Assembly: GCF_004010195.1 (NCBI RefSeq)
Contig: NC_057760.1
Coordinates: forward strand, 50,871-114,870
Length of the DNA stretch: 64,000 nt
Source: Chiloscyllium plagiosum
Taxonomy: Eukaryota
Direction of reading: 5' to 3'
Every line of letters begins with the position of its first letter. Position 1 is the stretch's first letter. Both the position numbers and the translations under genes were made by a program. Under the pieces are notes generated by a model. It made no database searches. It was not told the origin of the DNA and was given only the letters and a program-made list of their open reading frames with translations. Positions 22,701-53,014 of this stretch are shown here, one piece after another.

Positions 22701-25700
22701 TTTCCTCCGGGTGCTCTGGTTTCCTCCCCTGTCCAAAGATGTGCAGGTCAGGTGAATTAGCCATGCTAAATTGCCTGTAGTGTTAGGTGCATTAGTCAGA
22801 GGGGGAATGAGTCTGGGTGAGTTACTCTTCAGAGGGTCGGTGTGGATTGGTTCCACACTCCAATCTAATCAAACGTAATCCCAAATGAAATTAGTCCCAC
22901 CTGCCTGCTCCTCGCCCATATCCCTCCAAATACTGTCTTATTCATTGCTTATCAAAATGTCTCCTTATAACTCAAAATGTCTTTTAAACATTGTAACTAT
23001 AACCACATTCACCACTTCCTCAGTTCATTCCAAGGCGAACTGCTCTGTGTTTAAAAAAAAATTCCCCTCCTGTCTTTGTAAACTCTCTTCTTAAAAATAT
23101 GTCCCCTAATCTTGAAATCTTCCACTCGAGAGAAAAGACACCTACCGTTTATCTTATCTAACCTTCTGATGATTTTTAAAACCTCTACAGGATCACCCCT
23201 CTGCGCTCCAGTGAAAAAGGTCCCAACCTAACCACCTTCTCCTTATAACTCAAACACTCCATATGTGGCAACATCCTGGTAAATCTCTTCTGAACGCTCT
23301 CCAGCTTAATAGTATCCTGCCTATTTACAGGGAGACCAGAACTGGACACAGTACTCCAGAAGAGGCCTCACTAATGCCCTGTACAACCTCAACATAATGT
23401 CCCAGCTCTTATACTCAAAGGTCTGATCAATGAAGGCAAGTGTGCTAAATGCCTTCTTAACCACCCCACCTATATGTGATGCAAACTTGAAACAATTATG
23501 TACCTTGAATCCCCAGGTCTCTTGAGTTTCCTCCTGGAAAATGGGATGAGATTAATTTAGGATATCTGGTCAGCGTGGACGAGTTGAACCGAAGGGCCTG
23601 TCTCTGTGCTGGACAACTCTATGACACTATAATTATCTATTCCTGCTCCTAGTTCTTGAGTTCTTATGTTATTGAAGAGTAGAAGGAAGAATCAGAAGAG
23701 GAAGAACAGCAGAGTTCTGATCTTGCAACCCCCGAATTTTCAGTTTGCCATGCTTCTTGGACCCGCAGTGTGGGAAGCCCAGATCTAAAAGTGTCATAAT
23801 TTTTTAAAGTCCTCAGTCACATCTCCCCTTGGGTGTGTCTGCTCCCAGTGAAAACAAGCCTGGCCTGACTGGAGATCATCTTTCCTCTCAACTTAGCAGA
23901 CAATAATTTTTACTAAAAAAAAACTATTGAAGGATTTGAGCTACAGGGAGAGGTTGAATAGGCTGGGGCTGCTTTCCCTGGAGTGTCGGAGGCTGAGGGG
24001 TGACCTTTTCAAGGTTTATAAAATCATGAGGGTCATGGATAAGATGAATAGACAAATCATCCAGTACTAGAGGGCATAGGTTTGAGTGAGAGGGGAAAAG
24101 ATATAAAAGGGACCTAAGAGGCAACCTTTTCACGTAGAGGGTGGTGCATATATGGAATGAGCTGCCAGAGGAAGTAGTGGAGGCTGATACAATGACAACA
24201 TTTAAAAGGCATCTGGATGGTAACGTGAATAGGAAGGGTTGAGAGGGATATTGGCCAAGTGCCTGCAAATGGGACTAGATTAGGTTGGGATATCTGGTCA
24301 GCATGGACGAGTTGGACCGAAGGGTCTGTTTCCATGCTGTACATCTCTATGATTCTGAGTTATTTCTCTTTCTTTCTCCTTCAGTGCCGCCCAACACTTT
24401 ACAACTGTGTGGGAACAAGCATAAAAAGCGACTCCTTGCGCCAGCAATCAGTTTGACCCTGGAAGGCGATGGGGAGACCACACGCTCCGAGGAAAGGACT
24501 CCAGATGAACCAGAAGGGGATTCCTCTGATCTAAATTTAGATGAATTAGATACTCCTTCAGATAGTGAATCATTTGAGTTGCCGGAGAATGGTAATGAAT
24601 TTGAGTGGGAAGGTAAACAAACCAATCAACTTCTAATCAATACTCTTAATCATCTCCTCTGAACAACTGTCTCCGTTCATTTCCTGTCTCTTTCTCCATT
24701 GAGTTAGCTCCATGTTAGCTTGATAGTGACTCTGGTAGCTGCGGCAGCCCCATTTCTCTCATGGTCGAAGGTTGGTTTTCCCCTCCACTCTCAGCAATGC
24801 CCCTCTTTCCTGCGCATAGGCTGCCAGAGGGGAGCACAGCATTGCTCCTCGGAGTGTTCACCTCTCCCCTACTTCCTCTGGCGCACATTGGCGGCACGGT
24901 GGCTTAGTGGTTAGCGCTGCTGCCTCATGGCGCCAGGGACCTGGGTTCGGGCGACTGTCTGTGTGGAGTTTGCACATTCTCCCTGTGTCTGTGTGGGTTT
25001 CCTCCCACAATCCAAAGATGTGCAGGTCAGGTGAATTAGTCATGCTAAGGTGTCCATAGTGTTAGGTGCATTAGATTCGATTCCCTACAGTGTGAAAACA
25101 GGCCATTTGGCTCAGCAAGTCCACACTGACCCTCTGAAGAGTAACCCACCCAGACCTGTTTCCATACGGTAGGGAATCAAATCTAATGTCGTTCACCCAT
25201 TATTGAATTAGGTTGGTGGTGGACGTAGGTTAATCTACTCTACTTCCTGCACTGGCCTTTAGCACTAGAGGATTTGAGTACTGGTGTAAAGAAATTTTAC
25301 TGCCATCAGATAGAGCTTCAGTGCGATCACACATATACAGGTTTTGTCTCTTTACCAAAGGAAGGATATGCCTCCCATAGAGCAAGTGCACTGAAGGTTT
25401 ACCAGACTGATACCAGTGATGGCGGTATTGTCTTATGAGCAAAGATAAAAGTGACTGGACCCGTATCCTTTCGGGCTGTTTACTCTCTCGTTCCCACCCT
25501 CCTTACAGTATGTGGCCATTTCCATATGGCCATATCTGTGAAACCTCATGTCTATCTCCTTTCCTGTGTGCATTATGGTATTCCATCGTATTAGTTGTAG
25601 GTCAGCAAGCAGTGCTCTGTCACCTCAGAGTCAAAAAGGTTCCAGTCTAACTGAAGAAACTGAGGCCCATAAGCCAATATTCCCCTCACAGCATTATCTG

Positions 25701-28700
25701 ATGATGCCATCTTTTAGAATGAGAATCTAAGGCTTGGTTTTGCCCCTTTTGGGCAGATTTAAAACATCCCACAACTGCTACTCGAAGATCATCAGATGCG
25801 GGAGGTGGAGGTTCTCCCTGTTTGGTCAATATTTATCTTCAACAACACCAAATCACAGATGATCTGGGCCATTGCCGCCTTGCTGTTTATGAGAACTTGC
25901 TGTGCACAAATTGGCTGCTGCATTTCCCACACTACGACAGCTCCTGCTCTTTAGAACATACAATATTACAGCGCAGTACAGGCCCTTTGGCCCTTGATGT
26001 TGCCCTTACGTGTGAAACCAATCTGAAGCCCATCTAATCTATACTATTTCACTCTCATCCATATGCCTATCCAATCACCATTTAAATGCCCTTAAAGTTG
26101 GCAAGTCTACTACTGTTGCTGGCAGGGTGTTCCATGCCCCTACAACTCTCTGTGTAAAGAAATTATCTCTGACATCTGTCCTATATCTATCACCCCTCAA
26201 CTTAAAGCTATGTCCCCTTGTGCTAGCCATCGCCATCCAAGGAAAAAGGCTCTCACTGTCCAACCTATATAGCCCTCTGATTATCTTATATGTCTCAATT
26301 AAGTCATCTCTCAACCTTCTCTCTGAAAACAGCCTCAGTTCCCTCAGCCTTCCCATGAAAGACCTTCCCTCCATACCAGGCAATATCCTGGTAAATCTCC
26401 TCTGAACCCTTTCCAAAGCTTCCACGTCCTTCCCATAATGCAGTGACCAGAACTGTACGCAATACGCCAAGTGCGGCCACACCAGAGTTTTGTACAGCTG
26501 CAGCATGACCTCATAGCCTTCCCATGAAAGACCTTCCCTCCATACCAGGCAATATCCTGGTAAATCTCCTCTGAACCCTTTCCAAAGCTTCCACGTTCTT
26601 CCCATAATGCAGTGACCAGAACAGTACGCAATACATCAAGTGCGGCCACACCAGAGTTTTGTACAGCTGCAGCATGACCTCATGGTTCCAAAACTCAATC
26701 CCTCTACTAATAAAAGCTAACACACCGTATGCCTTCTTAACAACTTTATCAACCTGGGTGGCAACTCTCAAGGATCCATGTACATGGACACCGAGAGCTC
26801 TCTGCTCATCTACACTACCAAGAATTTTACCATAAGCCCAGTACTCTGCATTCCTTTCAAAGTGAATCATCTCACACTTTTCCGCATTAAACTCCATTTG
26901 CCACCTCTCAGCCAAGCTCTGCAGCTTATCTATGTCCCTCTATAACCTACAACATCCTTCATCCCCATCCACTACTTTACCGATCATAGTGTCATCTGCA
27001 AATTTACTAACCCATCCTTCTATGCCTTCATCCAGGTCATTTATAAAAATGACAATCAGCAGTGGACACAAAACAGATCCTTGCGGTACACCACTAGTAA
27101 CTGAACTCCAAGATATTTCCCATCAATGTCAGCCTGTCTTCTTTCAGCAAGCCAATTTATGATCCAAACTGTTAAATCACCCTCAATCCCATGCCTCCGT
27201 ACTTTATGCAATAGCCTACCCGTGGGGAACCTTATTAAATGCCTTACTGAAAAACATACACACCAAATCAACCGCTTTACCCTTATCGACCTGTTTGGTC
27301 ACCTTCTTAAAGAGCTCAATGAGGTTTGTGAGGCATGGGCAAAAGTGAGGACTGCAGATGCTATTCCTGATGAAGGGCTTTTGCCCGAAACGTCGATTCT
27401 CCTGCTCCTCCGATGCTGCCTGACCTGCTGTGCTTTTCCAGCACCACTCTGATCTAAACCCTTTGTGAGCCATGATCTACCCTTCACAAAACCAGGTTGA
27501 CTATCCCTTATCAGCTTATTCCTCTCTAGATGATTATAAATCCTATCTCTTATAACCCTTTCCAACACTTTACCCTTAACCGAAATAAGGCTCACTGGTC
27601 TATAATTCCCAGTGTTGTCTCTACTCCCCTTCTTGAACAAGGAAACAACATTTGCTATCCTTCAGTCTTCTGGCACTATTCCTGTAGACAATGACGACAA
27701 AAAGACCAAAGCTAAAGGCTCGCCAATCTCCTCCCTGGCATCCCAGAGAATCCTTGAATAAATCCCATTCTGCCCAGGGGTCTTATCTATTTTTACACTT
27801 TCCAGAATTGCTAACACCTCCTCATGAACCTCAATCCCACCTAGTCTAGCAGCCTATATCTCAGTATTCTCCTAGACATTATTGTCTTTTTCTAGTGTGA
27901 ATACTGACAAAGAGTATTCATTTAGTGCTTTCCCTATCTCCTCTGACTCCACACATAAATCCCACTACTATCCTTGATTGGCCCTAATCTTACTCTAGGC
28001 ATTCTTTTATTCCTGATATACCTATAGAAGGCTTTAGGGTTTTCCTTGATCCTATCTGCCAACGACTTCTCATGTCCCCTCCTGGCTCTTCTGAGCTCTC
28101 TCTTTAGGTCTTTCCTGGCTAACTTGTAACTCTTAAGCACCCTAACTGAGCCATCACATCTCATCCTAACATAAGCCACCTTCTTCCTCTTGACAAGAGT
28201 TTCAACTTCCTTAGTAAACCACGGCCCCCGCGCTCAACTTCCTCCCTGCCTGACCGGTACATACTTATCAAGGATCCGCAGTGGCTGTTCTTTGAATAAG
28301 CTCCACATTTCAATTGTGCCCATCCCCTGTAGTTTCCTTTCCCATCCTTTGCATTCTAAATCTTGTCAAATGGCATCATAATTGCCTTTCCCCACAGCTA
28401 TAACTCTTGTCCTGCAGTAAATACCTGTCCTTTTCCATCGTTAAAGTAAACATAACCAAATTGTGGACACTTTCACCAAAGTGCTCACCTACCTCCAAAT
28501 CCAACACGTGGCCAGGTTCATTACCCAGTAACAAATCTAATGTGGCCTTGCCCCTTGTTGGCCTGTCTACGTACTGTTTCAGGAAACCCTCCTGCACACA
28601 CTGGATAAAAACTGACCCATCTAAAGTACTTGAACTACAGTATTCCCTGTCAATATTTGGAAAGTTAAAGACCCCTATAACAATTACATGGTTACTCTCG

Positions 28701-31700
28701 CTCCTACTCAGAATTATCTTTGCTATCCTATCCTCTACATCTCTGGAACTATTCAGAGGCTTATAGAAAACTCCCTACAGGGTGACCTCTCCTTTTTGGT
28801 TTCTAATCTCAGCCCAGACTACCTCAGTAGATGAGTCCTCAAATGTACTTTCTGCAACCGTAATACTGTCCTTGACTGAGTGTACCCCCCCCCCCCCCTT
28901 ACAATTTTCTCTATTCTTACTGAATCATCTAAATCCCAGAACCTGCAATAACCATTCCTGTCCCTGCTCTATCCATGTCTCCGTAATGGCCACATCATTG
29001 AAATCCCAGTTACCAACCCATGCTGCAAGATCACCTACCTTATTCCAGATGCTCCTGGCATTGAATTAGACACACTTCAAACCAACTTCTGGCTTGCCAG
29101 TGCCTTCTTGTGACCTTGAAACCTTAGTTCTGACCTCACTACTCTCAACCTCCTGTACACTCTCCAACTACAGTTTAGGTTCCCATCCCCCTGCTGTATT
29201 AGTTTAAACCCACCCGAAGAGCAGTAGCAAATTTCCACTCCAGGATATTGGAACCTCTCTGGTTCAGGTGAAGACCGTCCTGTTTGTAGAGATCCCACCT
29301 AACCCAGAAAGAGCCCCAATTATCCAGGAATCCAAAACCCTCCCTTCTGCACCATCCCTGCAACCACGTGTTCAACTCCTCTCTCTCCCTATTCCTCGCT
29401 TCGCTTGCACGTGGCACGGGCAACAAACCAGAGATTACAACTCTGTTTTTTCTAGCTCTAAGCTTCCACCCTTGCTCCCTGACTTTCTGCCTTAAATCCC
29501 CATCTCTCTTCCTACCTATGTCGTTGTGGAGCACGACCTGGGGCTGCTTCCCCTCTCCCTAAAGGATCCCGAAAACACATACTGAGACATCGCAAACCCT
29601 GGCCCTGGGAGGCGTCACACTAACTGTGAGTCTCTTTTGTTCCCACAGAACCTCCTATCTGTCCCTCTAACAATGAAGCCCCAATGACTCTGCTCCTCTT
29701 TCCCCTTCCCTTCTGAGCAACAGGGACTGACTCTGTGCCAGAGACCTGGGCCCATTTGCTTTCTCCTGGTAAGTCATTTCCCTCCCCCAGTAGTATCCAA
29801 AACTGTATACTTGTTATTGAGGGGAACGGCCACAGGGGTTCCCTGCACTGCTTGCTGGTTCCCTTTCCATCCCCTGATGGTAACCTTCTTTTACCTGAGG
29901 TGTGACTACCTCCCTGTAACTCCTCTCAGTAAACTCCTCCGCCTCCCGAATGATCCGAAGTTCATCCAGCTCCAGCTCCAGTTCTCTAACGCGGTTTTTG
30001 AGGAGCTGGAGTTGGGTGCACTTCCCACAGATGCAGTCAGCAGGGACACTACTGGTGACCCTTACCTCCCACATTCTGCAGGAGGAACATTCAACTGCCC
30101 TAACGTCCATCCCATTATTCTAAATTCCCAACGAGACTACTGAAAAACTAACAAAAAATAAAGGAACTAGTCACCTTACCAATCCAGTGCACATAACCTT
30201 TTTATTTGATTAGAGAAGGACAGGTGGGAGACACTACCCGAGTAGCGTTTTGGATAAAGCAACCTCCCAAATATCAAGCCTCACTTACCCAGCAGTCCCA
30301 TGTCCGCTCCTGCTCAGTGTGTGCTCTACCTGTACATGAGGTGAGCTTTTATCTATTTCAAAAAAACTTTAGCTGCAAAACATGTGACTTACTAACGCAG
30401 CTAAATAAGAGGAGAGTGGAGACTGGTAACTGCAAGTTCCCCTCCGAGACACTAACCATCCTGTCTTGGAACTATATTGGTCATTCCTTCACTGTCACTG
30501 GGTCAAAATCCTCAGACCTCCTCCCTCCCTTCCTAATGGAACTTGGAGAGTCTCTATACCATTTAGGCTGCAAGAATTCAAGAAAGCAGCCTCACAACCT
30601 TCCCAAAGGGCAGCTGATGCTGTTTTAGCCAGTGAAGCCCACATCCCGTAAACCGAGAAAAATGATTCCAAATTCTGTTCTTCTGAGTCAACCCAACAAT
30701 TGGTAGTATCCAAACAATGTCCATCGTTCTAACTGGAGTCTAAGCAAAATTGATCCCTTCCATCCATTATCAGTAAAATTGATGAGTTGCCTTGTGGGAG
30801 TTTGCTGTGCAAAGATCAATTGCTATGTTTCCTTTATTACGATATGTGGATCTCCAAACTGGAGCACTCCATTGGCTATAAAGTGCTCTGGTATCTGCAG
30901 CTCCCTCTCACAGCCACCCCTAGTCTTGAAGAAGGGTGACACTCGAAACGTTGACTTCTCCACCTCCTGATGCGGCCTGCTTGGATCCCAGCATCTGCAG
31001 TTTTTTATTCTCTAACTAAGTTTGTACCACTGTGAAGTCTCTTTAAAGGATGCCTCCTTTGAAGACGTTCTTTGCCTCCCTCAGATGTGCACTCAGTGAG
31101 TCCTTTCTCACTGCCACAGTGCCTTGACCTCTTTAGCCCTCCAGTTCTTTGGCCACATAGTGAAACAAACTCAACCTGTCTTCACTTAACCCCATCTCAC
31201 CATCATGAACCCCCCACCCCCTTTATCTGCAGCTCCCTTTACACCTATGCCCAGTCCTAAAGAAGGGTTACAGCCGAAATGCTGACTTCTCCACTATCTG
31301 ATGCTGCCTAGTTTGCTGTATAATTCCAACCTCCTGCTTGGATTCCAGCATCTGCAGTTTTTTTGTCTCCACCTGAGATGTGCTGAGGGCATGTAGGGCT
31401 GTGTTTCAAATTCCAATCCATATTAAACTGGTAAATAGAGAGCATGTGCAGAAATTTGGTTTCATTGCTGACCTTTTAGCAGCATTGAAGCTCGACTCTT
31501 TTTTTAAAAAATGCCCGTGAGTGTTGGACACAAAGCAGAGATGGTGCGGGAAGGGATGACGTTTGAGTGGGGAAACAGATTTGGTGAGATGGATGCATGA
31601 TCATTCGCGCACACCAGAGTGAGTGAGTGTTCTGGGGCCACACCATTTTATGAGCCACGGGTAAGCCTCTGACTGCGTATCCTTCATGCAGATTTGTTGA

Positions 31701-34700
31701 TTGTGACTTGATTTGCGTTGTCAATTTCCGTTGTGCCTGCTGTGATTCCCTGCATGCACAGCCAATCATGAACATATTTTGGTGTTCTATATGCCGCACA
31801 AACCAATCAAAAGCATTCTTGCACCCATTACTAAGAAGCAACATCTAACCCCCTGATGATTTCCTATTCCATCTTAACTGAAATTTGTCACACTTGGAAA
31901 TTAGCTTTGATTCTCTCCATTTTGAGATTTAATTGACCAGTTTGTGATTTTTAAAAACGATTCTGTATTCGTCTAGGGGATAAAACAATTCATTCCAAAC
32001 TCCGGTTTGCTAACTCCTCACTTCCACTCCTCCACTAACATTAATTATAAAGAAAATGCCCTTTAGCTTATTCATCTGGGATTTGTGGGGTGGGGTTTGT
32101 TTTTTAGCTTTTGGAGAGCAGCAAACCGAGAGAAGATTAGATATTGACTACAAACTTAGATTAGGAGCTCGAACTTGAAGAACCAGTTCCAGTTCCACCC
32201 AGTGAGACAGAGGCAGAATTTCCTGGCCACACCAACATTTTTTAAAATGGTCCTAGTTAATGGAGGAGTTGCATGAAAAGTGGGGAGGGGGGGGGGGGGG
32301 GGGGAGTAAATGATTTTTCTTGTCAGTTGTCAAAAATATATTTGGAATGGTTCAAGCCAAGAAAAGCCCAAATAGCTCATTCATACCATTTTCAGAACGG
32401 AGTTGACAACCACTCCAGTTCTGTTATGCTCTCCGCCTAAATGCTACTTTCTCTCCACCCTTCCGCAACCTGGCCAGATGATCTGCCCCGGGTGTATCGC
32501 TCGTTGTCAGACACTGAGAGTTTCCAGGGACACGTGACGGACGAGGAGACGGAAGACGGAAAGCTATGGCGGGTCTTCCACATCGGAGAGCAGGAATATC
32601 GGGTGGACATGGCTGTTGTAGATCCGTACAAGGCAGTCATTTCTCACGGAGGTGAGGCTCCTGGTTTGAGTGTGGGTTAGTTTATTTTCTTGACCGGTCT
32701 AAACCGATGTGTCGATGTGTTGGCTGACTGTTAATTTGGTAATGTTCCCAAGACACGAGTTCAGCTCCTACCACCGCGGCTGCATGATTGAGGAGAAGTG
32801 GTGACATAGTGATAATTTCAGTAGATTAGTAGAACATAGAACAATAAAACGCAGAACAGGCCCTTCGGCCCTCAATGTTGCACTGACCTGTGAACTATTC
32901 TCAGCTCATCCCCCTACACTATCCCAAAATCATCCATGTGCTTATCTAAGGATTGTTTAAATCTCCCTAATGTGGCTAAGTTGACTACATTGGCAGTTAG
33001 GGCATTCCACGCCCTCACCATTCTCTGAGTAAAGAAACTGCCTCCGACATCTGTCTTAAATCTATCACCCCTCAATTTGTAGTTATGCTCCCTTGTACAA
33101 GCTGACGTCATCATCCTAGGAAAAAGACTTTCACTGTCTATCCTATCTAATCCTCTGATCATCTTGTACGTCTCTACCAAATCCCCCCTTAGCCACCTTC
33201 TTGCCAATGAGAACAGACCCAAGTTCTCAGCCTTTCCTCGTAAGACCTTCCCTCCAGACCAGGCAACATCCTGGTAAATCTCCTCTGCACCTTTTCCAAT
33301 GCTTCCACATCCTTCCCGAAATATGTTGTGGCCATTTCGGAGACATGGATAGAGCAGGATGAGGAATGGAGTCATAGAGATGTACAGCATGAAAACAGAT
33401 CCTTCGGTCCAACCCGTCCAGGCCGACCAGATATCCCAACCCAATCTAGACCCACCTGAGAGCACCCAGCCCATATCCCTCCAAACCCTTTCTATTCATA
33501 TACCCATCCAAATGCCTCTTAAATATTGCAATTGTACCAAATCAGTATTTGCTGTGGAAAAGAATATGGAAGATGTAGACTGTAGGGAAATAGATGATGA
33601 CATCTTGCAAAATGTCCAGATTACAGAGGAGGAAGTGCTGGATGTCTTGAAACGGGTAAAGGTGGATAAATCCCCAGGACCTGATCAGGTGTACCCTAGA
33701 ACTCTATGGGAAGCAATAGAAATGATTGCTGGGCCTCTTGCTAAGATATTTGTATCATCGATAGTCACAGGTGAGGTGCCGGAAGACTGGAGGTTGGCTA
33801 ACTGTTTAAGAAGGGTGGTAAGGACAAGCCAGGGAAGTACGGACGAGTGAGCCTGACGTCGAAGGTGGGGAGGTTGTTGGAGGGAATCCTGAGGGACAGG
33901 ATGTACATGTATTTGGAAAGGCAAGGACTGATTAGGGATAGTCAACATGGCTTTGTGCGTGGGAAATCATGTCTCACAAACTTGATTGAGGTTTTTGAGG
34001 AAGTAACAAAGAGGATTGATGAGGCCATAGCGGTAGATGTGATCTATATGGACTTCAGTAAGGCGTTCGACAAGGTTCCCCTTGGAGACTGATTAGCAAG
34101 GTTAGATCTCACAGAATACAGGGAGATCTAGACATTTGGATACAAAACTGGCTCAAAGGTAGAAGACAGAGGGTGGTGGTGGAGAGTTGTTTTTCAGATT
34201 GGAGGCCTGTGACCAGTATAATTGTGAAGTCTAGACTAATGGAGTGAGGACAAGAGTTCAAATCCCACCATGGAAACCGGTGGAATTTAAAGTGTTAATA
34301 AATCTTGGATGTGAAGCAAGTTTCAGTGAAGATAACCATGAATCTATCATTGCTGTGAAAAAAAAAGAAACCCATCTGATTCATTAACGACCTTTGAAAA
34401 TCATCCATCTTGAACTGATCTGGACAGGAATGGGACTGCAGATTCTCAGAGAGGTTAATTCTTAACTGCCCTTTGAAATGGAGAAAGTGAGGACGGCAGA
34501 CGCTGGAGATCAGAGCTGAAAATGTGTTGCTGGAAAAGCGCAGCAGGTCAGGCAGCATCCAAGGAACAGGAGAATCGACGTTTCGGGCATAAGCCCTTCT
34601 TCCTGAAGAAGGGCTTATGCCCGAAACGTCGATTCTCCTGTTCCTTGGATGCTGCCTGACCTGCTGCGCTTTTCCAGCAACACATTTTCTGCCCTTTGAA

Positions 34701-37700
34701 ATGGGCCTAGGAAGCCCTTCAGTTGTCAAGGTCAATCCAGGATGTGTAGCAATGTTTGCCTGCATGGCAATGGCATGTTTTATTTTTAAAAGCCTCTAAC
34801 TTGAAGTCTTATAGGATGAAGTGCAGGAGAGACAATAGGTAATAAAGTGAACGGGTCCTAGTCTCCTTCTAGTGAAAACATCTTCTCCACGTCTACTCTA
34901 TACAGGCCACTTAGTGTTCTGTAACATTCAATCAGAATGCACCCCACTGCTTCTAAACTCCTATCAAGTGCAGACCCAGAATCCCTAACTGCTCCTCATG
35001 TAACAAGCCCTTCATCCCCGGGATGATTCTTGTAAATCTTCCCTGGTATCCAGAGCAACCTTCAATTCAACCAACCTGGTAATTTATAAAGATCTCTCAG
35101 ATGTGGAGAGGTGGGAAAGATGAAAACTCTGACCTGATCAATAATGCTTGCTCTCTTTCTACCAGGTTGCTTTGGGGAGAGTTTAACTGCAATCATTGTG
35201 TTTTCCTCATGCTATTTGCCGGAAAGCAGTCTACCTGATTATGAAAGCGTGATGGAAAATCTCTTTAGGTAATGAACTACTTTGTATATCCTGATCTTTA
35301 AAAGCCTTCTATTTCGTGCCTTTGATGTGATGTTTGGCTAACTGCACTATTTTGGGAAATTGAGGAACATTATTCCTTGGGAGAAAGATTTTAGATTCCA
35401 AGTTGTGCTGGTCAGACTTTCATGGCTGCCACTTGATTGCCATCTGTTATGAAGCAATTTATTCAACCACAGATTTTTACAAAGGACGTTTCAGGACGTC
35501 CCAAAACGTTTCACAGCTGTTGAAGCATTTGTTTTTGGAAAGCTCTCACTACTGTAGTGTATTATAGAATCATAGAATCCCTACAGTGTGGAAACAGGAC
35601 CTTTGGCCCAGTTAGTTCACACCGACCCCTCCAAAGAGTATCCCACCCAAACACATTTCCCTACCCTATTACTCTACATTTACTCCTGACTAATGTACCC
35701 AACCTACACATCCCTGAACACAATGGGCAATTTAGCATGGCCAATTTACCTAAACTGCACATCATTGGATAGTGGGAGGAAACCAGAGCACCTGGAGGAA
35801 ACCCACGCAGAACAGGGGAGACTGTGCAAACTCCACATGGACAGTCACCCGAGGCTGGAATCAAACTGGGGTCCCTGGCGCTGTGAGGCAGCGATGCTAA
35901 CCACTGAACCCATGCCGCCCCGACAACTGAGCCACCGTGCTGCCATGTAGGGAACATGGCAATCAATTTGCACATGGAAAGTTCCCAGACAGCAACCGTA
36001 TCTCCTTTTGTATTCACGTGTGATGTCAATTTGAGAATAAACATTAGCCAGGACGCCAGGATCCTTTGTTTAACACCACTGAGAGACAGCACCTCAGACG
36101 TGCAGCACTCCTTTAGTTCCACACTAGGAGCGCTGGCCTAGAGTTTAGACTCCAATCCCTAAAGACTAGAACCCACTCTACTTCCTCAGGAGGCTAAGGA
36201 AATTTGGCACGTCCGTAAAGACACTTACCAATTTTTCTGGATGCACCATAGAAAGCATTGTATCAGGATGGATCACGGCTTGGTATGCAATTGCTCTGCC
36301 CAGGACTGTAAGAAACTACAGAGAGTTGTGAACATAGCCCATTCCATCACGCAGTCCAACCTTCCATCCATTGAATCTATCTATATTTCTCACTGCCTCA
36401 GGAAGGCAGCCAACATCATCAAAGACCCATCCCATCCTGGCTATAATCTCTTCCAGCCTCTTCTGTCGGGCTGTAGATACAAAGGCTTAAACACACGTAC
36501 CAACAGGTTCAAGAACAGCTTCTTTGTCACTGTTATCAGACTTCTGAATAGACCCCTCACATTTCAAATTTAATGTTGACCTTGCTTTTTACAGCTTCTC
36601 TCCAGCTTTAACATTGTATTCCTCGCCCTGTTCTATTACCCTTATGCACTTTGTATGTTATGATCCGCTGTACTGCATGTAAAACAAAACTTTGCACTGT
36701 ACCTAGATACATATGACAATAATAAATCAAATCAAAAATTGCTGAATAATGTTTATGCCCACATCTTGGAGTTTAGCCTCAAGACAGACTGGTTGAGGAG
36801 AAGGCAACATTAACAACTGTCTTCAAATTTGGGCTTCTTTATAAATACTTTATTATATATTAAGACTAAATAATACAATACATGGCATTCATAGATATAC
36901 CAGGCTTTAATTTTTCTATGGTATTGTGGAAAGATTATTCTACAAGTTTTACCACCTAATGCTGGACAATTTACTCCACATGCTTCACTGCATATGTCTT
37001 TTTGTTATTCCCTAATGGGACATGGTGTTGCTAGCTGACCAGCATTTATTGCCCTTGCGAAGATGGTTGTCAGCTGGTTTTTTGATTGACTGTAGTCTAT
37101 GGTGCCACTAGGAAGGGAATTCTAGCAATGTCAATGGGGAGGTGATTCTAGCAATTTTGACCCAGCAACAGTGAAGGAGCGGTGATGTATTTTCAAATCA
37201 GTACAGTGAGTGGCACACATATCTGCTACCTTGGCCCTTCTAGATGGAAGTGGTTGTGAGTTTGCAAGACCTTCTGATGTGATGCTACCCACTGAGGCAT
37301 AACTGGCACCCGATGTAAGAAATATTCTTCAAGCTCGAACATGTGCTCGCTTAAAATCCCGTGTCCCACTATGATAGTTGAGCCAGCATTTATTGCTCAT
37401 ACCTAACTGCCCCTGAGAAGGTGGTGGTGACCTGCCTTCACCTGATGTAAGGACATCTGCAGAGCTTATAGGAATATAGTTCCAGGATGTTGACCCAGTG
37501 ACTGTGAAGGAACAGCTAAATAGTTTTGAGTCAAAATCGACTCAGTTTTTTCCCTCGCATCGCACTTGCTTCATTGGCAAAATATCTGCACCCTTTCATT
37601 CTTGATCCTTTTACAGGCGGCATCAGTTTCTGTCATTGATTTAAAACTGTTAACCTGGTGTAGTGACTTTTAAGTAAGTGACTTAAAAGCTGAGTGCCAA

Positions 37701-40700
37701 AAAATGAATCGACCCCATTTCACAGAAATGTGACTGTCGTGTTCTGTCCCCACAGGTATGTTATTGGAACTCTGGAATTGCTGGTGGCTGAAAACTATGT
37801 TATTGTGTATTTAAACGGTGCCACAACTCGCAATAGAGTGCCATCAATCAGCTGGTTGAAACAGTGTTATCAGACCATTGACCGGAGGTAAGATGCTGCT
37901 GCTGTCTGTTGTTAGAACGAATTAACGATTGAAAGTCAACATTAAGTTTATTTTTAAATTGCTAGGAAAGGGAAATTCATGGTAAGGAAGGTTGACTGCC
38001 TGAATCATTGCTATGCTGGAAGGTATGGATTTGGGCCATGTAGTCATGGAATCATACAGCATGTAAACACTCTTCAGTCCAACTTGTCCACGCCAACCAG
38101 GTATCCTAAACTGAACTAGTCCCATTTAAGGACATAAGAAATAAGAGCAGGAATAACTGGCCCCTCAAGCCTGCTCCACCATTCCGTGGATCGGAGCGGC
38201 ACGGTGGCTCAGTGGTTAGCACCGCTGCCTCACAGTGCCAGGGACCTGGGTTCGATCCCCCCCCCGCCCCCCTTGGGCGACTGTCTGTGTGGAATTTGCA
38301 CATTCTCCCCCGTGACTGTGTGGATTTCCATCGGGTGCTCCGGTTTCCTCCCACAGTCCAAAGATGTGCAAGTTAGGGTGGATTGGCCATGCTAAATTTA
38401 CCATACTGTTCAGAGATGTGTAGGTTAGGTGAAATTTCTCATTGGAAATGCAGGGTTACAAGGAATGCTGCTCAGACGGTCAGTGTGGACTTGTTGGACC
38501 AAATGGCCTGTTTCCACATTGCAGGGATTCTAAATGAAAAAAACACAGGGAGCAAGCGTTATTTCTCAACATAAACACTTGTCGAGTTCAGTGTTCTGAT
38601 TACTATTTTGTTTTGTTGCTACAGGTTACGGAAAAACTTGAAATCTCTGATTGTCGTGCATCCATCGTGGTTCATTAAAGTGATATTAGCTATTACCCGG
38701 CCTTTTATAAGGTACAACCTTCCTTTTACCCCACCCATCTTTTCTTGCTCATCTCCTAATTATTCCACAGAAACACGGGGGAGGTTTAATGAGCTTCTCG
38801 AGCCTGTCTGTCATTTGATAGAAGTGTGGCTAATCTGTAACTTAATTCTACATTTGCCACCTGTCCCTTTAATATCTTTGGTGAACCTGCCAACTAGAGA
38901 TTGATAACTGCTTGTAATTTGAGGAACACATTCCAAAATCTCAGTCAATGATCCCAAAAGGAATGCTGCATTGCTGGAAGCACCATCTTTTGAGTGAGAT
39001 GATGGGACAAATTCCCACAGTCTCTAACCCTTTGCTGTTCCAGGGAGTTTGATGGGAGTATACACTGTTGGCTGCTGTCCCATATTTTACGACAGTGACT
39101 CTATTGGTGATGAAACACAATCTCCTGAGATTGTGAACGGTGCTATAAAAATTCAAATTGTTTCATTTCTCTTTTATCTTCCTCCCTCTATCTTTTTTCA
39201 GTACTTTTTCTTTCCAGTTTCCTCCCCTCTCCACCTTTCTCTCCATTCCTCCCCGTCTCCTCTTCCCCCTTCTCTTTCACATTCCCTCCATCTTCCCTTT
39301 CTGTTTTCTATTTGTTGGGAATTGATTTCCAGACTAATATTTTAAACTGAGGGACCACAATTATGCCAGTTCCATACTTTAGTTCTTGAACTGACTGATG
39401 CTGGTGCTAATGCAATGCTCTTTTTCTCTTCTGCAGTTCAAAATTCAGTAGGAAAGTTCGGTTTGTAAATAGTCTTCAGGAGCTCTCACAGTTAATTCCC
39501 ATGCAACATGTACATATTCCAGAATGCATTAAAACGTAAGTACTGTATAGCTGAAATTGCATTCCATTTATTTACAATTATGTTCCTTATGCATTTTAAT
39601 ATTTACACTGAAAGCATTGTTGCTTTGATCATGTTGGTTTATCTCTGACTGCACAGGACAAAACCAAAACATTTCAATTGGTGAATGTGTTGTTTCAACA
39701 TTAGTTTGTCAGAAGAAAGTTTGTAATGCGTGATTTGTACAAGTTCACAAACACAAATCTCAAAGGCCCATCGTTTTCAATTTTTAAACATTTTTGTAAT
39801 CACCCGAATCATGTGTGTATATATTAGTGAAGTTTAACAGGCATTTAGACAGACACATAAACAGGCAGGGAGTAGTAGGACTTGGACCATGTGAGGCAGA
39901 TTGGATTAGTTTAGAATGGCATGGACATAGGGTCTGAAGGGCCTGTCCTTGTGCTGTACTGTTCTATGTACCTACATTTTTAACAGTAGCTTTGTACAGA
40001 ATATCTTAGGATTCAGGCAGAGACATCCTCCAGGAGGTTCTGGTTGTACTCATCGTGCAGACTGTGGGGGGTCCCAGGTATGATCCCCATCCATGCTGAA
40101 AAACTTAGCTAATCCAGGCATTTTGCCTTGATACTAGTTCTCTGGAAGAAAGTCTAGACTGCAGATGCTGGAGACCAGAGTTGAAAAGTGTGGCGCTGGA
40201 AAAGCGCAGCAGGTCAGGCATCCGAGGAGCAGGAGACTCAATGTTTTGAGCATCAGCCCTTCATCAGGAATGTGGGGAATGGGGAAACAGGGCTGAGAGA
40301 TAGGTAGGGGGATGGGGGATGGTAGCTGGGAAGGTGATAGGTAGATGCAAGTGGGGGGTAATGGTGATAGGTTGGGGGGGAGGGGGAGCAGATAGGTGGG
40401 AAGGAAGATGGACAGGTAGGACAGTTCAAGAGGATGGTGCCAAGTTGAAGTGTTCGATCTGGGATGAGATGGGGGGAGAGGAGACAAGGAAAATGGGAAG
40501 TCAACGTTGATGCTGTGTAGTTGAAGGGTCCCAACGCAGAAGATGAGGCGTTCTTCCTCCAGTCATCGGGTTGCTTGGATTTAGCCAGTTTTCTGCACGT
40601 TTAACATCCCTCAGGGATTGCAATAAGTGTGACTTTCCGCTAATCCTTGCACACAGACTCAATTAGCCTCCATTCCCAAAGGTGGAACAGCCTGGCATCC

Positions 40701-47000: not shown

Positions 47001-48859
47001 AAGTGCATGCAAGCTGGTACACAAATGTTTCCAGCAATGACTATTTTTTTTTCATTGTTCTGACAACATTGAAGATGGCCACAATGTTTGAAGAAGTATT
47101 GTCAATACTCTGGTTACATGACCTGATTCGAGGCTAGGAATTTTGCAGTGAGTAATCACCTCCTGACTCCCCACGTTTGTCTGTCAGTTATCATGCACAA
47201 GTCAGGAGTGAAACGGAATACTCTGCACTTGATTACAAGGCTATAGCTCAGGAATCCCTTGAGAAGCTGAACACCATCGAGACAAGGCATCCTGCTTCAT
47301 TGTTACCCCTGTCCACCCCCCATACACAATGCTTACATTGTGCAGTGGCATCTTGTAGATGACGGTGCACATAGTGGCTCACCAAGCCTCCTCCAACAGC
47401 ACATTCCAAATTATCTTGACTTCTGCCACCTAGAAGGTCAACAGCAGCAGACGCATTGAAAAATCTAGTTCCTCACAAGGCCACACATCATCCTAACTTG
47501 CTATTTCTTTCACTATCACTGGTGAAGATGCTAGAACTCCGTCCCTGCTGGTACTGTGGGTATCCCTACACCACAGAGACTTCCATAGTTCAAGAAGGTA
47601 GTTCATCACCACCTGATCAAGCATTTAGGGATGGGTAATGAATGTTGGCACATTCAATATTTCCCATATCCCAGGAATACATTTTAAAAACGGCAGGTTT
47701 AGTCTATTATATGATTTGGGGCTGGCTTAACTGTGTCTTGTACCTCTGAGCATTTGTTTGTAAAGAGTTCTGTTACAGCTGTATTGAAGTCAAAAGGATT
47801 GCTGTGAGGGAATACATTACTTAAAATCAGTACCACTCCAACCACATCAGCCTAGTGTAAAGCTAAAGCAGCACAAAATGGGATCTCTGGACGCAACATA
47901 CATTTGGAATGGGAGAATCTCATACATCTGAGTTTTTACAGTTCAAGGTGGGCACACTTAGATTTCTAACAGTTCAGTGCTATAACTTTGCAGGCACTCT
48001 TGAGCCCGTAATCCAGGCTGACATGCCCAGTGCCACAGCAGCATGAGACATTAAATTGCAGCTGTGTCTGCCCATTTAGTGGATGCCAAAGATCCTGTTC
48101 CGAAGAACAGTAGGAAATTTCTTTTCAGGGGTCCAATATTTATCTGTCAGCCAACTTTTAAAAACGAAAATCAGCTGGTTCTGATGCAATGGCCGTTTGT
48201 GGGAACTTGTTGCTTTCCCTACACGGCTCTGGTTTGCAAGTAACTCAGGAAGTTGCAAAGTGTTTCGCAGTTGGTGGAGTTGTGAAATGCAGTGCGTAAA
48301 TAGATGTCCTTATTTTTGTCAAGTTGCCATCAAGTAACTGCTTTAATTAGCAGAGACGTTGAGATGCTGAAGGATGGCAATGCCCTGGTGTATTTTTGGA
48401 AGAATGCTCCTCCTTGTGTACTGTTATGTCCATTACGTGCACTATTTACTCAATCAAGACCCTTCTTGACTTCTCCATTGAATTCCCATCAACCTTTTTA
48501 CTGCTCTCAGGATCATTCTGCTTTTGTTTTGCCTGCAATGATGGCATCGATTGGAAAGAGATGGGCTCATTTCTGCAGTGATCCAATATCCATTTTTTAA
48601 TCAAAAGCTTAAACAAAAACGAGCAAAAAACTGTCATCCATGTGATAATGAACATTCAAACATGAATCTTTTTACCTTGGTCACCCGGCGCCATATTTGT
48701 TATTCACCTGGTGCCCTTTGGTGAGTGGAAACATCTGCGAGTCATTATGTTGCATACAAGGAGGATTTTTTTTTGCATTTAAAATGCTTCACTTGGTCGC
48801 CAGTCCTTTGTTGCTGGATTTATTAAGGATAACTCGGTCATAAATCACAAATTTAACAC

Positions 48860-49500
48860 GAAGAACCACGGTAAGTACCACAAATCGGCGAAGGAGGTGA
48901 TCGGGTGGGCAAGTGGAAACGAAAACCTCCACTTTCACCAGCCCCATCCACGCGTATGCCCCGTTTGCGATCTGAAATCGCTCGAAGGCGCTAAAGCCTT
49001 TGGATTTAATCTGAAGTCGACGCTTTGATAAAGTTTAAAATTGTTCACATCCCCCCTCCCGGATGAAAATGGAACGAGCCACGCCGAGGGCCGGCTGCCG
49101 CCCCCAGCCACGCGTCAAGTTCCACCCACCCGCGTTTTGGCGGGACGGCTTGTGATTGGTCAAACGTCTCCCGTCTAACGTCATAATAGTGCCGTCGCCA
49201 TGGAGATGCGCATGTGCTCGCTCCCGGGCATTTTGAATGCCACCTTCCTCGCGTGCTCTTTAACGGATTCTACCGCGCCACCATCTAATGGCGGCCATGA
49301 TGGTTGCTGGAAGTCAAGAGTCCTCCTGGATCTCACTTTCCAGGGAGCACAGCGGTGGCCATGGACTTTGTTGCGCTCACCTTCCTACTTGCCCACTTGG
49401 CCGCACCGGGGAAGGCACCGGCTGTCGCCGGAGGTGTTATTTTGATAGTAGTGCCCAGTGAGGGGAGTGCCCTCAACCGCCTCGCCTTGCCATCCACCCA
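48860..49500 (+). promoter_or_regulatory. CpG-island-like promoter of the MENT-like gene
   Basis: CpG density rises sharply against a CpG-depleted background. Inverted CCAAT (ATTGG 49155-49159), NRF1-like TGCGCATGTGC (49207-49217) and YY1-like CGCCAT/ATGGCGG motifs (49196-49203, 49288-49296). Confidence 0.7.
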
Positions 49501-51772
49501 GATTGTAAACGCCCAGATTGACAACCGGCCCAGCAAGCAGCCTACCACCCACTCTGGTACCAGGTCTATTGTTCTAGCGGCCACTCAGCCTGGCACCCAA
49601 CCTGCCACCCAGCACGCCACCCAGTCTGGAACCCAACCTGCCACCCGGCACGCCACCCAGTCTGGAACCCAACCTGCCGCCCAGCACGCCACCCAGTCTG
49701 GAAACGCCACCCAGTCTGGAACCCAACCTGCCGCCCAGCACGCCACCCAGTCTGGAACCCAACCTGCCACCCAGCACGTCACCCAGTCTGGAACCCAACC
49801 TGCCACCCAGCACGCCACCCAGTCTGGAACCCAACCTGCCGCCCAGCACGTCACCCAGTCTGGAACCCAACCTGCCGTTCAGCACTCCGCCCAATCTGGA
49901 ACCCAACCTGCCGCTCAGCACGTCACCGAGTCTGGAACCCAACCTGCCACTCAGCGTGCCATCCAGTCTGGAACCCAACCTGCCGCCCAGCACACCACCC
50001 TGTCTGGAACCCAACCTGCCACCCAGCATGCCACCCCGTCTGGAACCCAACCTGCCGCCCAGCCCGCCACCCGGTCTGGAACCCAACCTGCCACCCAGCA
50101 TGCCACCCAGTCTGGAACCCAATCTGCCGCCCAGCGCGCCACCCCCTCTGGAACCCAACCTGCCACCCAGCACGCCACTCAGTCTGGCCGCCGGCACGCC
50201 ACCCAGTCTGGAACCCAACATGCAACCCAACCTACTGCCCAGCCCATCACCACGTCTGGCATTCAAGCTACTACACAGCATGCCACTCAATCTGGCACTC
50301 GGCATGCTGCCCAGTCTGGAACCCAACCTGCTGCCCAGCATGCCACCCAACCTACTGCCCAGCACGCCACCTTGTCTGGCACCCAGTCTGTTGCCCAGCA
50401 TGCCTCCAGGTCTGGCACCCAGCCTGCAACCCAGCACGCCACCAAGGCAGGCACCCGGTCCAGAGCCCACCATAGCAACCAATCTGGTACCCAGCCTGCT
50501 GCCCAGCACATCACCCAGTCTGGTACCCAGCCAGCTGCCCAGCATGCCACCCAGCATACAACCAAAGCTGGTACCCAGTATGGCACACAGTCTGCAGCCC
50601 AGTACATTGCCAAGTCTGCTAACAAAGCCCAAACTGCCGTCCCATCTGCTGCCCCATCTGACAGCCATTCCAGCCTCCGGCCCTTCACTGGCCCCAGCTC
50701 ATCCCCATCTGCCAGCAGGACCCAGGCAAAACAGGCGCACACCTCCACCTCCTCCTCCCCCATCATCCTGATGGGCTCCTCGCAGATCTCCATCAGTGAT
50801 TCCAGCCACTCTGGGCAGACCACAGCCGCCCCGGTCACCATCGGCAAGGGGGCAGAGATCATTGTTGCCAACTCAGACAGCACAGCAAAAGAGAGCGCTG
50901 TTCCCATCATCTTGGTAGCTGGGGATGAGATCATAGTCACTAGTTTGGACAGCACTGGGAACAACAGTAGCTCTCCTACAGACAGCAGCAGCCAGACGGA
51001 AATCATCATCTCTGATGCTGAGGGTTCAGAAAATGCAACGTCTGCTTCCATTGTCCTCAGCAGTGGGGACGAGATCGTGGTCGCCAGTGCTAACGGTGCT
51101 TGGACTGAAACTGCTACTTCAATTTTACTCGGCAACAAAACCAAAATCAAAATTGCCAGCATAAAAGACAGCAAACCCCCGATTGTTTTAGACAATGGTT
51201 TAGAAATAATAACCAAACATTATTCAGAAATGGAAAAGACTGAGCCCAAGCAGGTACGCATGTCTGTCATTCCGGAGACTTCAGTTCCCATTATTCTTAC
51301 CAGAAGCAAAGCCATCATGAAGGTCCCAGGCAAAAGTCCTACAGTGCAAGAGACCACAACTACGCCTCACATGGACATGCCTGTTGTCATCTCGCTAGAC
51401 ACCTCTTCTTATACATGGGCCCAGTGGAGTGACTGGTACTGCAACTGCCTTAATAGTAGCATGTCGCGAATCCGGGGCATTATGGACAAGGAGACGGGTG
51501 CCATCCTCCATACCAAGAACTACCAGCCTAGCTATTTCCAAAGAGAACCTTGTGACTATAAGGTCTGCCAGTGCAGCCAGGAGGACAGACAGTGTGCTTC
51601 CACCAATGTCACCTGCTTAGAGTCCAACCTGTACGACTGCGTGCTTGATGACATCGCCTATCAGAGCGTTTTGAACTCCAAGCATTACTGGAGTAAGTTG
51701 CAGAAGGGAGTCCAGGCCCTTTATCAGAAAATTAAAATGTTCTTGAGGAAAAACGCAAAGGAGAAGACATAG
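49361..51772 (+). CDS. C1orf56: Predicted secreted mucin-like protein (803 aa) with a C-terminal TSP1-like Trp/Cys domain; probable MENT/C1orf56 orthologue
   Basis: Uninterrupted 2.4-kb ORF with a strong Kozak context (GCCATGG) at 49361 and a hydrophobic N-terminus (MDFVALTFLLAHLAAPG). The C-terminus WAQWSDWYCNC..SMSRIR..EPCDYKVCQC..C..C..YWSKLQKGVQALY parallels recalled mammalian MENT (WGPWHCHC..TMSRSR..KPCTYQQCPC..FWKRVRIGLEDIW). It lies directly downstream of BNIPL on the same strand, as in human 1q21. Confidence 0.8.
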   Translation: MDFVALTFLLAHLAAPGKAPAVAGGVILIVVPSEGSALNRLALPSTQIVNAQIDNRPSKQPTTHSGTRSIVLAATQPGTQPATQHATQSGTQPATRHATQSGTQPAAQHATQSGNATQSGTQPAAQHATQSGTQPATQHVTQSGTQPATQHATQSGTQPAAQHVTQSGTQPAVQHSAQSGTQPAAQHVTESGTQPATQRAIQSGTQPAAQHTTLSGTQPATQHATPSGTQPAAQPATRSGTQPATQHATQSGTQSAAQRATPSGTQPATQHATQSGRRHATQSGTQHATQPTAQPITTSGIQATTQHATQSGTRHAAQSGTQPAAQHATQPTAQHATLSGTQSVAQHASRSGTQPATQHATKAGTRSRAHHSNQSGTQPAAQHITQSGTQPAAQHATQHTTKAGTQYGTQSAAQYIAKSANKAQTAVPSAAPSDSHSSLRPFTGPSSSPSASRTQAKQAHTSTSSSPIILMGSSQISISDSSHSGQTTAAPVTIGKGAEIIVANSDSTAKESAVPIILVAGDEIIVTSLDSTGNNSSSPTDSSSQTEIIISDAEGSENATSASIVLSSGDEIVVASANGAWTETATSILLGNKTKIKIASIKDSKPPIVLDNGLEIITKHYSEMEKTEPKQVRMSVIPETSVPIILTRSKAIMKVPGKSPTVQETTTTPHMDMPVVISLDTSSYTWAQWSDWYCNCLNSSMSRIRGIMDKETGAILHTKNYQPSYFQREPCDYKVCQCSQEDRQCASTNVTCLESNLYDCVLDDIAYQSVLNSKHYWSKLQKGVQALYQKIKMFLRKNAKEKT
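49582..50600 (+). repeat. Coding minisatellite, 36-nt unit (CAGTCTGGAACCCAACCTGCCACCCAGCACGCCACC) encoding QSGTQPATQHAT
   Basis: About 16 well-conserved units followed by about 10 degenerate or partial units; all length changes keep the frame. Confidence 0.95.
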
Positions 51773-52274
51773 TCAACAAGGTAAGAAACTTGCCAGGTTC
51801 CCATTGGAAGGAGGCAGGCCATTGAAGCCAGCACATCCTGCTTTGAGGTGGAGTTCAGTTTTATACAAGAGTCAGTTTGATCTCACACTTTAGCAGATTG
51901 TCGCCCTTGGTCATTGGCATTTGGTTTTTAATTCATTCACAGGGATGTGGGCTTTGCTGTTAACTCAATAGCCCCTTCTCTACCCTCTCCACCCTGACAT
52001 TTGCCCCTTGAGAAGTTGGCATTGAGCCACTTTCTTGAAACCAAGTAGTTTGTCCAGCCATTTTTTCTCGAGTCAACAAATGGTTATAGCACAGCCTGTT
52101 TGGGCTGGAATGTTTATGCCAGCTTTCTCTCTGGTAAAGCAACAACTCAGTCCCACTCTCTTGTCTTTTTGAAAATTTTTCTTTTCACATAATGCTCCAA
52201 TTCATTTTTTGAAAGCTGTGATTGCCTCTGCCTCCACTATACTTGTACATAGTGAATTCCAGATCTTCAGCATG

Positions 52275-52545
52275 CGTTGCCTGAAAATATTCTCCCACAA
52301 TGCTGCAGCTTCTTAACCACTGGCTGCCTGAGAATATTTTCCCACAATGCTACAGCTTAACCACTGGCTGCCTGAAAATATTTTCCCACAACGCTGCAAC
52401 TTCTTAACCAATTGCTGCCTGAAAGTATTTTCCGACAATGCTGTTGCTTTTTTAACCACTGGCTGCCTGAAAATATTTTGCACAATGCTGCTGCTTCTTA
52501 ACCACTGACTGCCTGAAAATATTTTCTCACAATGCTGCTTCTTTG
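52275..52545. repeat. ~47-bp minisatellite, ~6 copies
   Basis: Unit TGCCTGAAAATATTTTCCCACAATGCTGCAGCTTCTTAACCACTGGC. Confidence 0.9.
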
Positions 52546-53014
52546 TTCATCACCTTAAACTTATATCCCTCTGGTTTTCAAGCCTTCCAACAATGGAAAC
52601 AGTTTCTCCCTCTCTGTCTAGATCACTCATGATTTTGAACCTCCTCTCCGCTTTCTCTTCTTGAAGTAGAAATGCAGCTTTTCTGATCTGTCTTCATCAC
52701 TGGAGTCCATTTTCCCAGGAACCATTCTTTTAAATCTCTTCTGCACCTTATTTCGAGCCTTCACATCCTACCTAAAGAGCAGTGCCAGACCTAATACTGC
52801 AGTGGAAGTTGAACCAGTGCTTTATACAGCGTTTATTACTTATTGCTTTTGTACTCTATTCCCCTATTGCTAAAACTTGTGTGCTTTTATTGACTGCATC
52901 TTTCATCTGTCCTGCCATTTTTAATGATTTCTACACAATACCCTGGGTTCTTCAGCTCCTACAGCCCTCTAAGAATAGTATCCTTTACCTTATATTGCCT
53001 CTGCTTGCTCTTGG

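Follow-up and report, generated by a model that had tools for sequence, protein, structure and literature searches.

Evidence for an elasmobranch ortholog of MENT/C1orf56/PMIS1 with a tandemly expanded linker in Chiloscyllium plagiosum

A stretch of 64,000 nucleotides from Chiloscyllium plagiosum (assembly GCF_004010195.1, contig NC_057760.1, positions 50,871 to 114,870 of the forward strand; hereafter the window, in whose numbering all positions are given) contains an open reading frame (ORF) at 49361-51772 on the + strand that encodes 803 amino acids followed by a stop codon. The evidence presented here supports the assignment of this ORF as the elasmobranch ortholog of MENT/C1orf56/PMIS1 (Gm128; PF15322; UniProt Q9BUN1). 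From its N to its C terminus, the protein is composed of a hydrophobic segment, a Thr/Gln repeat, a Ser/Pro linker, a hairpin module, a spacer, a Trp/Arg/Cys core, and a terminal helix. Membership in the family, this arrangement of parts, the conservation of the core, and the variability of the linker are, in our judgment, nearly certain. The MENT family is known; what is new is its assignment in sharks and rays, a module that has no name so far, and the finding that linkers of the family have been expanded repeatedly. As to its role, the reading that we favor, by a modest degree, is that of a secreted sperm-surface glycoprotein that would help sperm to bind glycoprotein coats.

Family assignment and gene structure

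A profile built from 15 named tetrapod MENT proteins matched amino acids 676-792 with 110.6 bits, covering model positions 2-118 of 120, whereas the best of 200 shuffled sequences reached 9.1 bits. A search with the core among 1.84 billion representative sequences returned 28 proteins at E ≤0.001, four of which are from elasmobranchs and 20 of which are non-elasmobranch proteins with the core motif. Many of the 18 that were looked up are named "protein MENT"; they come from a caecilian, lizards, turtles, an alligator, and marsupials, with E values down to 1e-21, and each named species among the matches contributes a single copy. The remaining four, P0014, P0024, P0026, and P0030, were attributed to similar composition and set aside; they are not found in the top rows of the search with the tetrapod MENT profile. 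The alignment of 36 rows, including the protein encoded in the window, has 14 invariant core columns, among which are two Trp residues, the CxC motif, M-x-R-x-R, a later Cys, and the Trp of the helix. In a tree of 26 rows, the six elasmobranch proteins form a clade with 100/100 support, and amphibians, squamates, and marsupials occupy separate parts; the tool warns of long branches, and a long branch leads to the elasmobranch clade.

The genomic neighborhood points in the same direction. Upstream on the same strand lies a gene of the BNIP2 family, the first exon of which matches Pfam BNIP2 (E 8e-14) and the third CRAL_TRIO_2 (E 3e-4), with no match for the other two; this gene is probably BNIPL rather than one of its paralogs. 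A further candidate exon of it was noted at 19573-19643, whereas its last exon was not found. The gene order reported for pig is CDC42SE1-C1orf56-BNIPL-PRUNE (PMC4201535). A first-pass annotation, made from the DNA sequence, had proposed the MENT/C1orf56 orthology, which the profile match, the named matches, and this neighbor now bear out. Its expectation of conserved synteny held for the BNIP2-family side, but neither CDC42SE1 nor a CRIB-type motif was found in the window, in which only 12 kb follow the ORF.

The lack of CDC42SE1 in the window is one of several points that weigh against the assignment. The only Pfam family matched by the core is PF15322 (PMSI1), with 21.8 bits (E 1.3e-4), which is below the cut-off of 29.6, and the full-length protein of 803 amino acids has no Pfam match. 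For comparison, the Heterodontus homolog scores 29.7, just above the cut-off, and a Paroedura "protein MENT" scores 28.9 and thus falls below it. Furthermore, the shark core shares only 21-35% identity with the tetrapod rows. One might consider a paralog of MENT, such as a THSD8-like protein, in view of the long branch to the elasmobranch clade and of a THSD8 cluster among the Atlas look-alikes (0.83, a lead only). Given the full-length match to the MENT profile, the BNIP2-family neighbor, and the single copy per named species, we judge this alternative very improbable.

The features shared with the known family are a signal-like N terminus, a low-complexity linker, the Trp/Arg/Cys core, the terminal amphipathic helix, the position after a BNIP2-family gene, and probably the two-exon structure. 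The shark protein differs in its length (803 versus 350 amino acids in mouse), its Thr/Gln repeat with 12-amino-acid units, and its additional hairpin module. Coordinates of all features are compiled in Table 1.

Table 1. Features of the MENT locus and its surroundings, in window coordinates
Feature	Position	Strand	Basis or remark
Upstream BNIP2-family (BCH) gene, probably BNIPL	24385..39535	+	exons 24385-24612, 35166-35268, 38625-38711, 39437-39535
CpG island over presumed promoter and start of the MENT ORF	48501..49500	.	CpG observed/expected 0.87-0.90
Coding sequence of the 803-amino-acid MENT/C1orf56 ortholog	49361..51772	+	open frame; homology; profile match
Likely signal peptide, aa 1-23 (putative cleavage site)	49361..49429	+	hydropathy and conservation
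12-aa Thr/Gln/Ala/His tandem repeat, aa 78-415 (338 aa), 29 units; predicted disordered, O-glycosylated stalk	49592..50605	+	
One repeat unit absent in frame from X2 contig, present in X17 contig	50498..50533	+	probable length allele
Hairpin module, aa 468-620: six hydrophobic, hairpin-like units of 12 aa; sequon N558 invariant	50762..51220	+	elasmobranch homologs only
MENT core: TSR-like Trp/Arg/Cys domain, 8 Cys, aa 675-761	51383..51643	+	sequons N698 and N749 in 6/6 elasmobranchs
Amphipathic basic helix core, aa 776-795	51686..51745	+	hydrophobic stripe conserved family-wide
Strong splice donor (donor at 51781), 9 nt past stop; likely 3' untranslated region intron	51778..51786	+	predicted from sequence
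LINE	~52.9-54.5 kb		

The start codon lies in a strong Kozak context, with G at -3 and at +4. Nine upstream ATGs, all of them out of frame, were counted within 300 nt before it. CpG depletion is seen in the five 500-nt bins upstream of the island (observed/expected 0.14-0.39). Promoter-like motifs resembling YY1, NRF1, CCAAT, CRE, and GC-box sites were noted within the island at 48550-49215, with no chance control. The first-pass annotation described a single-exon ORF. The coding sequence is indeed uninterrupted, but the gene probably has two exons, because a strong donor follows the stop codon so closely; together with the lack of an AATAAA signal between the ORF and position 55775, this suggests an intron in the 3' untranslated region. 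Mouse Pmis1 is described as having two exons (PMC3395656 supplement). A 47-bp tandem repeat (5.6 copies, 52278-52538) is located just inside the presumed intron. Most of the locus is supported independently of the assembly by DNA run X2, the listed contigs of which cover 48500-49624, 50007-50108, 50149-50497, and 50534-53039, with the reservation that a relationship may exist between this run and the source of the window.

Conserved core, terminal helix, and elasmobranch hairpin module

Much of the architecture proposed in the first-pass annotation could be substantiated, namely, the strong Kozak ATG, a W-W-W/CxC/RxR/Cys motif followed by an amphipathic helix, several N-glycosylation sequons, and the lack of a transmembrane anchor. 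There are eight sequons, which include all five types that had been named, and three of them (N558, N698, and N749) are kept in all six elasmobranch proteins. The hydrophobic N terminus can be aligned in the four full-length elasmobranch homologs and shares 15 of 19 residues with that of Heterodontus. Since the three most hydrophobic 19-residue segments of the entire protein, the best of which scores 1.79, are all located within its first 40 amino acids, no later membrane anchor is evident. In the C-terminal helix, seven positions of the hydrophobic stripe are hydrophobic in at least 94% of the rows and one in 89%; in elasmobranchs, this helix is basic, with a net charge of +4 to +7 over 18 residues.

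The core is consistent with a TSR-like fold. Its structure model, derived from 36 sequences, has a pLDDT of 86.8 and consists of short strands followed by one long helix at amino acids 757-802. Like the TSR (TSP1) domain, the core has a W-x-x-W-x-x-W motif followed by R-x-R and a Cys pattern, and TSR proteins head the lists of weak structural matches: nine of the ten top Foldseek rows and nine of 14 rows in a second look with VIA are TSR-bearing. These matches are not significant, with Foldseek E values of 0.29 or weaker and VIA Z scores of 2.0-2.6, and this lack of significance counts against a firm assignment. A wide fold search gave only matches to long helices (Z 3.4 and lower), and Atlas features point to TSP1 (0.87 and lower, a lead only). 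The TSP1 profiles that had been suggested as a check on the C terminus did not match, as no Pfam TSP family was found for the core of the window at E up to 1, although one lizard MENT protein matches TSP1_spondin at E 0.013. The core differs from TSRs by a CxC motif at a place at which the Cys residues of TSRs are farther apart, by an added Cys subdomain, by the long helix, and by the lack of a Pfam TSP_1 match and of a significant fold score. The TSR-likeness of human C1orf56 has been noted earlier (PMC8329450).

The second, hydrophobic repeat noted in the first-pass annotation was recovered as a module of six units. It shares 40-62% identity with the corresponding segments of five other sharks and rays, whereas the flanking linkers share 8-29%. 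A profile of its units detected the module in all six elasmobranch proteins, the scores of which are circular since these sequences built the profile, and in none of the 44 non-elasmobranch family members. No match was found in Pfam or the Atlas; the sequence search of the PDB gave E values of 0.18 and weaker, and an AlphaFold model of the module and core based on six sequences had a pLDDT of only 33. The relatives in question are so far uncharacterized models, namely, XP_067878519.1 (Heterodontus, 407 amino acids), XP_051901764.1 (Pristis, 470), LOC129694529 (Leucoraja, 498), a Pristiophorus protein (458), and scyTo_0019392 (Scyliorhinus, 323), the last of which starts inside the module. None of them is named MENT in the sources, but they share the hairpin module, the sequons, and a core of 67-80% identity with the protein studied here.

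Because it is common to all six elasmobranch proteins, the hairpin module appears to be old within elasmobranchs. The first-pass annotation had proposed that two repeat modules were gained; this fits the lineage-restricted Thr/Gln repeat, but for the hydrophobic module, a gain in sharks and a loss in bony vertebrates are indistinguishable as there is no outgroup. The idea that short beta-rich stretches of turtle and lizard MENT proteins are remnants of the module found no support (lowest E value 0.46 of 20, lowest p value 0.063 of 44). The present analysis defines this so far unnamed elasmobranch module of 150 amino acids.

Tandem expansion of the linker

The repeat of about 340 residues described in the first-pass annotation as rich in Thr, Gln, Ala, and Ser was confirmed. 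It comprises 21 full 12-mers among its units, is detected by Tandem Repeats Finder with a period of 36 nt and a score of 690, and is composed of Q (21%), T (20%), A (18%), S (9%), G (9%), P (8%), and H (8%). The four full-length shark and ray homologs lack it, and their linkers measure 52-118 amino acids as compared to 446 in the protein of the window; the fifth, truncated Scyliorhinus model is no test of its presence. In contigs of run X17, which carry a second organism label (organism B), the repeat is found at 98-99% identity, which indicates that it is common to close kin. The repeat is thus restricted to a lineage. The X2 contig that lacks one unit would give rise to a product of 791 amino acids; this probable length allele rests on one contig with a depth of 5.4.

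Expansion of this linker as such is by no means peculiar to C. plagiosum. Among the 44 non-elasmobranch family members, 38 had linkers long enough for a periodicity test; eight of these showed clear tandem periodicity, and 12 exceeded all of their 50 shuffles. The clear cases come from six taxa, namely, Microcaecilia (537 amino acids), Rhinatrema (637), Anolis (343), Alligator (277/323), Vombatus (596), and Notamacropus (735). They share with the shark protein the tandem expansion of the same linker, with a period of 12 in Microcaecilia and Notamacropus, but their units are unrelated to those of the shark, being rich in Pro/Ser, Gln/Glu, or Ala/Val, and the hairpin module is lacking. The first-pass annotation had treated repeat expansion as specific to the shark lineage, which applies to the Thr/Gln unit but not to the habit, given the unrelated expansions in eight of 38 linkers and a wallaby protein of 735 amino acids. 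These cases go part of the way toward the refutation that the annotation itself had named, a repeat architecture general among vertebrate orthologs. Judged by these sequences, linker expansion is a recurring habit of the family. With 803 amino acids, the shark MENT is the longest found in this analysis but not out of kind, since marsupial and caecilian proteins have been lengthened likewise. The independent period-12 repeats of Notamacropus and of the shark are both Gln rich, and the units of both contain Pro and His. Several orthologs bear misleading automatic names, probably because of their repeats: methyl-CpG-binding protein 6 in Microcaecilia, an SPT20 homolog in Vombatus, and proline-rich protein 36-like in Rhinatrema.

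Two alternative accounts of the repeat were considered. The first regards it not as a tolerated spacer but as a structural part of sperm bundles or a seminal matrix that is under selection and acts by Gln cross-linking or His-metal binding. The abundance of Gln and the presence of nearly one His per unit are in line with this proposal, as is the chemical likeness of such a Gln/His repeat to semenogelin, and the Gln-rich repeat of wallaby MENT arose independently. The pN/pS relative to the unit consensus is 0.52 in the coding frame and 0.58-1.44 in the other five frames, a signal that is weak, given that the units depend on one another and that 0.58 is reached by one of the antisense frames. 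However, the four other elasmobranchs that lack the repeat are internal fertilizers as well, the repeat has almost no Lys acceptors, and a unit can apparently be lost, so that we regard selection for such a structure as unlikely. The second account assumes that splicing within the ORF or proteolysis takes the repeat out of the main product, leaving a working form similar to the elasmobranch proteins of 400-500 amino acids. A precedent may be seen in mouse Pmis1, for which a putative internally spliced form of 190 amino acids fits a 0.98-kb mRNA, and a 24-kDa spot was observed (PMC3395656). In the shark sequence, however, the highest-scoring donor ahead of the repeat reaches 6 on a crude scale on which the donors of the BNIP-family gene obtain 6-8, and the intronic purines that are usual at such sites are missing; the acceptors after the repeat are middling. 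In addition, the frame is open through all 29 units, and third codon positions vary most (35 versus 26 and 21). Removal of the repeat is hence given even less credence than selection for its structure.

Two further long frames over the repeat, one rich in Cys/His/Trp and the other in Pro/Ser/Leu, were rejected as by-products, with pN/pS values of 1.11 and 0.93, respectively. Glycosaminoglycan attachment is tied to acidic residues; as the linker contains only four such residues, we hold attachment to its 26 Ser-Gly sites to be unlikely.

Function and phylogenetic spread

Secretion of the shark protein is suggested by the three sequons kept in all six elasmobranchs and by the eight Cys residues of the core; human MENT has been listed among secreted proteins (PMC10229884). 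Experiments on members of the family point to sperm. Human C1orf56 was located on the sperm head and bound sialyl-Lewis(x) and the zona, and an antibody reduced binding, with the protein being only partially purified (PMC8329450). Mouse Pmis1/Gm128 was testis specific in Northern blots, occurred in the detergent-phase fraction of sperm, and was lost from Clgn-null sperm (PMC3395656). MENT is present in six of nine sperm proteomes, from six mammals including koala (PMC12070448 supplement), and has been listed in a review as a candidate zona receptor (PMC13319360).

In the mechanism that we tentatively propose, the N terminus would direct the protein into the endoplasmic reticulum, where N-glycosylation and disulfide bonding would take place. 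As it has no transmembrane segment, the C-terminal amphipathic helix may hold it on the membrane or pair with the helix of a partner, and the TSR-like core may bind to glycans or to proteins of a matrix, in the way that human C1orf56 has been proposed to interact with the zona pellucida. The hairpin module would represent an old elasmobranch accessory domain and the Thr/Gln repeat a recent slippage expansion of a fast-evolving linker. The repeat is predicted to form a disordered, O-glycosylated tail that would add to the sperm coat and the exact length of which would matter little.

A number of observations weigh against this role. All functional evidence is mammalian, and the role in sharks would follow by analogy. 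Pmis1 knockout mice were fertile in natural mating with an unaffected litter size, and the rate was lower only after superovulation (61.7% versus 89.8%; PMC3395656). MENT is absent from three of nine sperm proteomes, including that of the sole non-mammal, a crocodile (PMC12070448 supplement). Human MENT has been measured in plasma, where it tracks APOE genotype together with PLA2G7 (PMC13127520), which argues that it is not confined to sperm. No read of RNA run X21 (tissue not given) mapped to 48500-52921 in 12.96 million records, or about 2% of that run, but the reads of a poly(A) single-cell library would probably come from a 3' exon beyond this region. Run X17 was not counted as evidence of transcription, as it is RNA only by guess and its coverage is equally thin over the ORF and the flanks. 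If it bound lipoproteins, the amphipathic helix found throughout the family could account for the link of plasma MENT with APOE genotype and PLA2G7. A UniProt note, seen in the PMC12070448 supplement, ties MENT to proliferation and DNMT3B. The paper PMC2592717 was not used since it mixes up C1orf56 with MLLT11.

The first-pass annotation had placed the protein in mucus, matrix, or secretions, a proposal for which we found no support. In its general form, it would imply that the MENT ortholog was co-opted for general mucin-like use in skin mucus, the matrix, or glands, and the presence of 29% Ser plus Thr over the 446-amino-acid linker, the eight sequons, the CpG-island promoter, and the occurrence of human MENT in plasma are compatible with such a use. 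No polymerizing mucin domain (vWD or cystine knot) was matched in Pfam by the full-length protein. The sperm evidence covers six mammals, and stalks of equal length occur in marsupial MENT, with koala sperm carrying the protein. We therefore hold a mucin-like role to be unlikely and retain the sperm-surface glycoprotein as the preferred interpretation.

With its occurrence in sharks and rays, the range of MENT, a mammalian sperm protein of which little is understood, becomes wider, and its origin is placed in the ancestor of jawed vertebrates or earlier. The comparison also sets the conserved core, with its TSR-like domain and amphipathic helix, apart from a freely expanding linker and so identifies the part in which binding to zona or glycans can be sought. 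All named holders found belong to groups with internal fertilization, including the four of four named amphibians (two caecilians, the axolotl, and the tailed frog Ascaphus). No ray-finned fish and no frog other than Ascaphus were named among the matches, which is weak evidence of absence because the same searches missed birds as well as placental mammals, in which the gene certainly exists, and because several matches are unnamed. A speculative and rather doubtful extension would be that MENT is an ancestral sperm protein of jawed vertebrates kept only with internal fertilization, that its linker is a hot spot of sexually selected expansion, and that the hairpin module is a new extracellular adhesion fold. 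If retention tracks internal fertilization, MENT could serve to trace how reproductive mode has changed among vertebrates. In the literature searched, which excluded most subscription journals, no paper on C1orf56 in sharks was found, none of the C1orf56 papers listed concerned fish, and queries on chondrichthyan fertilization, IZUMO1, and sperm gave only unrelated work.

Elsewhere in the window, tandem arrays were noted in or beside retroelement remains at 17252-17736 (period 53, 9.2 copies), 26346-26683 (169 nt), and 56036-56832 (398 nt).

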